A stretch of 64,000 bases of DNA. It comes from a virus (taxonomy: Duplodnaviria > Heunggongvirae > Uroviricota > Caudoviricetes). The stretch lies in the IMG/VR virus record IMGVR_UViG_3300029861_000002; one strand, 5' to 3'. The translations under genes were made by a program, and so were the position numbers. Within the stretch, counting starts at the first letter, position 1, and every line of letters starts with the position of its first letter. The notes under the pieces were generated by a model that worked only from the letters and a program-made list of their open reading frames with translations, had not been told where the DNA came from and made no database searches. Positions 8,444 to 9,078 of the stretch are shown here, piece by piece.

Positions 8444-9078
8444 TTGTACCTTGAAAATAGAATAACTTAGATATGGCTATAATGCAACTCAGTGAAGACA
8501 CAACGTCATGTGGCTGAGAAACCCGATCCGAGCTTAGGCTGGGAGAATCGGATAATGGAGGATACCCCAACTATCCGTAATGGGCTTTAATGGTGACATT
8601 AGAGTTCTCGTGGTCGAATGACCGGCTCCTAGGAGGGTTGTGCTGACATAATCGCATCTAAAAACACTGTCTTATCGCTCTCGCAATAGACGCCCCTGTG
8701 GGGAATAATCCAAGTTAGGTTAAAGTGTGGCAACTTTGGCAATCCTTGGAAATGCCAACAAGAGAGTTTGCACTTGAACCAGAGAAATCTGGGTATAAGA
8801 TAAGGTCATGATCTGAGTAGCCCAAATGTGCAAAGACTTTGATGATTAGATAATAAGATATTGCTTGTTCTAAAGTCAAATTTCTGAATGACGGGTGAAA
8901 GGTAAGGGTAATCAATCCCTTTTGAGAAATGGAACAAAAGTTCTGGGACAAGAAGTTAGAGGTCGCTCCTCGAAGCTCAGACTTGTCTCCTCAATGGTTG
9001 AATATAGATGAAGATTAAACAGTTGGTAGGGCGAAGGCCCGCATTATAGTTATATCTAAGTTATTCTATTTTCTTTAT

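Follow-up and report, generated by a model that had tools for sequence, protein, structure and literature searches.

The name ROOL, for Rumen-Originating, Ornate, Large, designates the RNA family Rfam RF03087 (PMC5737381), members of which have been described beside phage transfer RNA (tRNA) arrays since 2017 and whose cage structures followed in 2025. The ROOL chains studied (env-120, E. faecalis, and Firmicutes CAG:227) fold as flat monomers, eight of which form a protein-free hollow cage of D4 symmetry about 28 nm across with a linker inside (PMC12286853; PMC12515178); the published structure is PDB 9MDS (Kretsch et al., 2025; PMC12286853), and further cage structures, by Ling et al. (2025), are described in summary in PMC12515178. 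It has been proposed that the cage encloses or scaffolds tRNAs, ribosomes or ribosomal particles, or other cargo (PMC12286853), and no catalytic activity is known for the family (PMC5737381; PMC12286853). In this work we analyzed a DNA stretch of 64,000 nucleotides (nt) from a large uncultivated tailed phage, probably of a host belonging to the Bacillota (IMG/VR record IMGVR_UViG_3300029861_000002; the whole stretch is referred to as the window). Judged from its sequence, the interval 8453-9073 on the plus strand is almost certainly a functional-looking ROOL RNA gene. This copy is an ordinary and typical family member, and it is neither a ribonuclease P (RNase P) RNA, as suspected in an earlier note on this DNA, nor a new type of RNA.

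Scanning of the window with Rfam 15 identified one very strong match other than those to tRNAs, which was to ROOL at 8464-9059 (+), scoring 350.3 bits where the gathering score is 99.1. The E-value lay between 3e-80 and 5e-82 across whole-window and narrower searches, and the match was untruncated and covered all of the 574 positions of the model (1-574), so that the copy is not a fragment. A permissive search of positions 8300-9300 (E<=10) returned ROOL, two tRNAs, and a chance match to a small nucleolar RNA (E = 4), and nothing else.

The secondary structure of the family can form in this copy. The interval has a folding energy of -209.7 kcal/mol (z = -6.2 versus shuffles), which bears out the many local helices seen in the earlier note, and when the Rfam consensus structure was mapped onto the window 133 out of 152 pairs were canonical. 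The closing helix P1 is made by a 33-nt inverted repeat with its 5' strand at 8453-8485 (+) and its 3' strand at 9041-9073 (+), the two strands being 94% complementary. Since this repeat lengthens the Rfam closing helix outward, the RNA most likely extends over 8453-9073 (621 nt), an extent supported by the RF03087 match, the canonical pairs, covariation, and the minimum free energy of folding. Covariation was assessed in a MAFFT alignment of the window copy with 13 other viral ROOLs that are 46-63% identical to it. Across these 14 sequences 76.3% of the cells assigned to pairs can pair, versus 59.1% in column shuffles and 39-49% when the partners were slid by one to three columns; changes on both sides of the pair were found at 135 of the 169 mapped pairs, and the observed covariation values were reached by none of 500 shuffles. 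In P1 compensatory changes are present at 29 of the 33 pairs. The A/U-rich segment at 8826-8887 (+), which is of low conservation or unaligned in the Rfam alignment and variable in both length and sequence, corresponds to the disordered linker described inside the published cage (PMC12286853).

The inter-chain bridges that hold the env-120 octamer together are listed in Supplementary Table 2 of Kretsch et al. (2025; PMC12286853). The env-120 reference sequence used here was 9 nt short and its numbering drifts, and contacts were therefore placed by local sequence context and not by number. Kissing loop B1 joins the hairpin loop CGUCAU at 8504-8509 (+; env-120 A38-C41) to the complementary AUGACG at 8888-8893 (+; env-120 G465-U468), placed by local alignment after a conserved CUGA. 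Most of the 13 other ROOLs compared have (A)CCAU/AUGG(U) in this position, so that the pair in the window represents a compensatory variant of its own. Kissing loop B4 joins the loop UGGCA at 8728-8732 (+; env-120 G307-A310) to UGCCA at 8753-8757 (+; env-120 U332-C335), which lies in the conserved AAUgCCAAUAA junction, and forms five base pairs (bp). B4 covaries across the 14 ROOLs, as in UGAG/CUCA of phage EFDG1, UAGCA/UGCUA of locus L121, and UGGUA/UACCA, and the mean complementary run was 4.7 within one sequence versus 3.4 between sequences. These two long-range loop pairings, which were pseudoknots in the 2017 description and inter-chain bridges in that of 2025, are thus both present and both covarying. 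The presence of two further contacts was judged by alignment; these are the GAAA tetraloop of the A-minor bridge B2 at 8784-8787 (+; env-120 G364-A366, placed by the Rfam and env-120 alignments) and the loop UCGCU at 8953-8957 (+), the central GC of which corresponds to env-120 G565/C566, the self-pairing bridge B6 between the half-shells. As far as can be read from sequence, the copy looks intact in that the family secondary structure can form and the complementarities between chains are kept, and by analogy with the solved structures we infer that the RNA would assemble into an octameric cage.

The window copy matches the family model over its full length and shares the nested helices of described ROOLs, it keeps the conserved junctions (CAAUAGACG, AAUgCCAA, CUGAAUG...GGUGAAAG, GUAAUCAAUCC, GCUCAGAC, and GUAGGGCGAAGGCCC), and it carries both kissing pairs, the GAAA and GC loops, and the variable internal linker; in addition it lies in the tRNA island of a phage genome and its 621 nt fall within the range of the family (mean 581, env-120 659). 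None of the differences is qualitative: the B1 pair reads CGUCAU/AUGACG rather than ACCAU/AUGGU, P1 with its 33 bp is long, and the two isoacceptor tRNA-Gln genes enclose the gene unusually closely. Two other large ornate RNAs share some of these properties. GOLLD (RF01998) is a phage or prophage RNA often found in tRNA arrays which likewise forms an RNA-only cage, in this case a 14-mer (PMC5737381; PMC12286853), but its sequence and secondary structure are unrelated to those of the RNA in the window, which lacks the separate 5' and 3' domains of GOLLD and its linker that sometimes holds tRNAs; the Rfam scan found no GOLLD match anywhere in the window. OLE RNA (RF01071) is a large ornate bacterial RNA forming an RNA-only homo-oligomer (a dimer), but its fold is unrelated, it is a chromosomal and protein-associated RNA of extremophilic Firmicutes, and it gave no match in the ROOL interval.

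The gene sits between tRNA-Gln(UUG) at 8368-8443 (+), which has an encoded CCA (ARAGORN; Rfam tRNA 61.3 bits), and tRNA-Gln(CUG) at 9079-9153 (+; ARAGORN; Rfam tRNA 57 bits). The boundaries of the gap given in the earlier note (8445-9078) were right, since the upstream tRNA ends at 8443 and the downstream one starts at 9079, and they match nearly exactly the segment 8445-9075 that is missing from the related locus L003. Its count of 27 tRNAs in the island also agrees with ours, which consists of 26 ARAGORN calls and one interrupted tRNA at 9326-9448. The G+C content, reported there as visibly raised, is so only modestly (41.3% against a window mean of 36.7%, standard deviation 4.2, 84th percentile) and is about equal to the 40.1% of the whole tRNA island.

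Apart from its RNA genes the window encodes a DnaE-type polymerase, gyrase, primase, NrdD, and further phage replication genes. By polymerase the nearest cultured relatives are Enterococcus and Bacillus SPbeta-like phages at 42% amino-acid identity; megablast of 24 kb found no close phage in GenBank, and blastn of the region against GenBank phages gave just a 69-nt ROOL core in Enterococcus phages. In L002 (IMG/VR contig 3300045988_075249), a relative of mosaic make-up with blocks of 83-98.5% identity, ROOL differs from that of the window at only four of 621 positions. The adjoining tRNA-Gln(UUG), at 8536-8609 in L002, differs at 19 of 76 positions and by a 2-nt indel; the differences include compensatory changes in the acceptor stem, and the L002 allele resembles that of L003, which has no ROOL. 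That this tRNA is far more diverged than the ROOL next to it suggests a recombination breakpoint at the junction of the two. In L003, the closest distinct relative (neighbouring ATPase 81% identical), just 3 nt lie between the two tRNA-Gln genes, and the blastn breaks at window positions 8444 and 9076 both map to L003 position 8091. The closest distinct relative thus lacks exactly 631 nt (8445-9075, +), a segment delimited by blastn breakpoints and alignment and present in the window and in L001/L002, which makes ROOL an accessory cassette.

Single-sequence nhmmer missed divergent ROOL copies, and a profile search was therefore used to survey the related loci. ROOL was present in the window and L002, in L024-26, and in L037, and in three of these distant relatives it lies beside tRNA-Gln (L025, 312.6 bits; L037, 341 bits; L026, 276.7 bits). 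The profile search found no ROOL within 10 kb in L003-L019, L022, L023, L028-30, L033, or L039. A divergent copy hidden in the gaps following tRNA-Gln in L007 and L018 was considered and rejected, as these gaps hold small open reading frames (ORFs) and an interrupted tRNA instead. The position of ROOL is taken in L022 by a RAGATH-33 RNA (12797-12909, 137.9 bits), and the tRNA island of L025 contains at 19668-19751 a partial OLE RNA match of 53.5 bits against a gathering score of 50, restricted to model positions 439-592. A 16-base ROOL motif was found in IMG/VR at 119 loci or more; among the matches listed about 100 were ROOL-like by profile search, and of 53 distinct near-full-length ROOLs about half were among tRNAs and about half at tRNA-free loci on smaller contigs. 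Two ROOL copies were found on a single 402-kb contig, IMGVR_UViG_3300032167_000002. In the cultured Enterococcus phage EFDG1 the tRNA island holds a full-length ROOL (260.6 bits) on the complementary strand (L053 1284-1870, equivalent to KP339049.1 ~52,892-53,478), where nothing is annotated between tRNA-Ser and tRNA-Met; the ROOL core is likewise matched, and left unannotated, in 30 further Enterococcus phage records.

Only 9 nt upstream and 5 nt downstream separate P1 from the flanking tRNA-Gln genes, which argues that ROOL is probably excised from a tRNA polycistron. The nearest strong promoter-like site upstream is TTGAAA-17-TATAAT with a TG extension at 7676-7704 (+), found by consensus scan, and could possibly be the start of the transcript carrying ROOL; in the same kind of scan no terminator-like site was found on the plus strand from 7704 until 11155-11183. 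ROOL would accordingly be transcribed together with the tRNA array. Cleavage by RNase P at the 5' end of tRNA-Gln(CUG) would leave ROOL with 5 nt beyond the 3' strand of P1, and on the other side the enzymes that mature the 3' end of tRNA-Gln(UUG), which encodes its CCA, would act 9 nt ahead of the 5' strand, so that tRNA-maturing enzymes would free the RNA with short tails; the released RNA would then self-assemble into a cage, as other members do. A broader proposal, which we consider possible but unlikely, is that ROOL is an exchangeable accessory module of the tRNA and RNA-maintenance island, matured by tRNA enzymes and acting on the products of the island; it would then cage, protect, or deliver phage tRNAs or ribosomal particles during infection. 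Nearby are a transfer-messenger RNA (tmRNA), a suppressor tRNA, a Ro-like protein, a nucleotidyltransferase, a phosphoesterase, an RNA ligase, and a Thg1-like enzyme, and by context only the locus fits the published idea of cargo or scaffold.

The suspicion of an RNase P RNA arose from two short strings which by eye look like conserved segments of that RNA and stand in the correct order. A tRNA island would supply such an RNA with substrates, and bacterial RNase P RNA (RF00010/RF00011) is also a large structured RNA that handles tRNA precursors. Both strings exist (8616-8643 and 8893-8911, at most 1 nt from the positions first given), but they are conserved parts of ROOL: the first is a hairpin with the conserved GUGC junction (model positions ~138-170) and the second the conserved GGUGAAAG...GGUAAUCAAUCC segment (model positions ~408-426), and the 350-bit match takes up the whole interval. 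The covariance-model search proposed in the earlier note for RNase P RNA and introns returned ROOL instead. Models of RNase P, group I and II introns, and ribozymes gave zero matches in 8300-9300 at E<=10 and zero inside 8445-9078 in a search of 1-17000 at E<=1, and no RNase P family of any type matched anywhere in 1-17000 at E<=1 or reached its gathering score across the whole window. The earlier note had also found no 3' strand of the P4 helix, which is absent because the interval is not RNase P, and the covariance-model alignment places the candidate 5' string in ROOL helices. Without model match or P4 helix an RNase P identity is effectively refuted, and we give it next to no chance. Another catalytic RNA, whether an intron of group I or II or a large ribozyme of a new type, is very improbable. 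The RNA is large, ornate, and conserved, and Weinberg et al. suggested that such RNAs might do sophisticated biochemistry (PMC5737381), but no intron or ribozyme model matches inside the interval, nothing requires splicing since ARAGORN finds both flanking tRNA-Gln genes complete, and the solved ROOL structures are cages without a described active site (PMC12286853). What stood of the original suggestion is a large structured non-coding RNA in a tRNA island; its expected novelty did not, since ROOL near phage and prophage tRNA arrays is a published context. Finally, the statement that no ORF of 60 or more codons is present is correct for ATG starts, but allowing TTG and GTG starts the mechanical ORF list contains two on the minus strand, both with TTG starts, at 8715-8951 (78 amino acids) and 8175-8570 (131 amino acids, overlapping a tRNA). 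That either is a protein-coding gene is hardly credible: there is no ATG start, the longer one runs through the tRNA gene, both oppose the gene orientation of the whole island, neither matched a Pfam or PHROG family, and substitutions among relatives keep the RNA pairing.

It is also conceivable, with a slim chance in our judgement, that ROOL is a selfish or neutral passenger cassette which moves between phage tRNA islands without benefit to the phage. The clean 631-nt presence/absence difference with respect to L003, the patchy distribution among relatives, the unequal divergence of the two flanks with a swapped tRNA-Gln(UUG) allele beside the same cassette, and a terminal 33-bp inverted repeat superficially like transposon ends all agree with this, and ROOL is non-essential in L. 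salivarius (PMC12286853). The repeat, however, acts as an RNA helix, in which compensatory changes keep the pairing while the sequence is not conserved, and for this reason a miniature inverted-repeat transposable element was rejected as its origin. There is no transposase nearby and no clear target duplication, just TACC at both junctions; moreover structure and inter-chain contacts are maintained, and ROOL lies close to tRNA-Gln in distant relatives as well, in keeping with inheritance and repeated loss. Some observations nevertheless weigh against an intact ROOL gene that is put to use by the phage. Nineteen consensus pairs are non-canonical in this copy, and the MAFFT alignment gives poor support to two short helices (A2 helices 10 and 11), which may be alignment error. 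G8893 is claimed by both the B1 kissing loop and a consensus stem, leaving B1 with only five conflict-free bp of five to six. The absence of ROOL within 10 kb in L003-L006 and L007-L019 shows that it is dispensable in the phage lineage, and the processing route has spacing and a consensus scan for promoters and terminators as its sole basis.

The same island contains permuted and interrupted tRNA-like genes which are separate from ROOL and represent a more interesting lead. They share the motif AAGAC-N4-ACAGCAAU ... N4-GUCUUG, which was found 100 times on the plus strand and 29 times on the minus strand in 915 kb of related islands. The unit 8236-8359 (+; core 8270-8340) looks like a circularly permuted tRNA-like gene, with a 9-bp helix of leader and trailer. 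Its first part consists of the leader AAGACGCAU-ACAGCAAU, a hairpin, the T arm, and the acceptor 3' strand AAAAGCC; after a 4-nt linker, CAUU, follow the acceptor 5' strand GGCUUUU, the D arm, and the anticodon arm (CUGAUAA), and the unit ends with the trailer AUGCGUCUUG, which is paired with the leader. Only when the unit is first circularised in silico does ARAGORN call a tRNA-Ile(GAU) in it. In the L003 ortholog (7919-7990) the acceptor strands are GGAUCGC/GCGAUUU, differing yet complementary, and the D and anticodon arms are identical. When 62 motif units from related loci were tested, 12 became a tRNA only once circularised and eight enclosed a normal tRNA, versus no tRNA calls in 1240 shuffles. 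A structural scan made independently of the motif yielded 42 distinct permuted cases, with none in shuffled sequence, and in 36 of the 42 both halves lay outside any normal tRNA call. The linkers of permuted units often read NCCA followed by an A/U-rich spacer. A possible permuted tRNA-like unit is also present in an unannotated gap of EFDG1 between tRNA-Pro and tRNA-Ala (L172, ~961-1279).

In the interrupted tRNA at 9326-9448 (+; Rfam tRNA 46.6 bits) an insert of about 48 nt splits the anticodon stem within its 5' strand. This insert is composed of a GNNA-capped hairpin, GGUCUU-GUCA-AAGACC, followed by GUA-ACAGCAAU, i.e., the leader/trailer motif of the permuted units joined as a hairpin, and it matched no Rfam family. 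The same insert is found in Asn, Ile, Tyr, Leu, and Phe tRNAs of related phages (L023, L028, L030, L044, L007, L018, L024, L037, L043, L045, and L068). The literature searched contained no relevant report of permuted tRNA genes or small tRNA introns in phages. Outside phages, Cyanidioschyzon merolae, some green algae, and archaea are known to have permuted tRNA genes.

Several other features of the window should be mentioned. A full-model match to the type-P1 twister ribozyme at 1385-1442 (+), significant (E 3e-7) though sub-threshold at 44.8 bits against a gathering score of 67.2, stops 5 nt short of tRNA-Ser(GCU) at 1448-1537 and may be a self-cleaving element trimming a tRNA leader. A homing-endonuclease-like ORF lies within the island at 1759-2220 (+; HNH/GIY-YIG PHROGs, E ~1e-12), in a segment missing from the blastn alignments to L002 and L003. 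The phage tmRNA is at 4696-5026 (+; Rfam 69.9 bits against a gathering score of 47; not called by ARAGORN) and is likewise present in L003, L007, L033, and L037. A tRNA with anticodon CUA at 14995-15069 (+; ARAGORN, labelled Pyl) is an amber suppressor, ahead of which a near-match to the AAGAC...ACAGC leader motif stands at 14905; suppressor tRNAs recur among the relatives. This tRNA may indicate TAG recoding of late genes, and the early genes in the window read normally in the standard code. Directly 3' of the tRNA island genes for RNA and tRNA maintenance form a cluster over 16091-30467 (+), which includes a Ro/TROVE-like protein with DUF2828 and DUF7788 (16091-17614, +), a nucleotidyltransferase (18885-19682, +), a metallophosphoesterase (19679-20548, +), an RNA ligase (21947-23221, +), and a Thg1-like tRNA-His guanylyltransferase (29580-30467, +); a PIN-PhoH fusion (33308-34564) and nicotinamide adenine dinucleotide (NAD) salvage genes also belong to the maintenance set.

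The ROOL of the window is one more ordinary member of a family which is common in viral contigs, and the copy in EFDG1 together with the 30 related GenBank records indicates that ROOL is still overlooked by genome annotation. The sister genomes with ROOL (the window and L002) and without it (L003-L006) provide a natural comparison for ROOL function. If ROOL were indeed an exchangeable module of the island acting on its products, these sister genomes and the unannotated copy in EFDG1 would make the function of ROOL directly testable.

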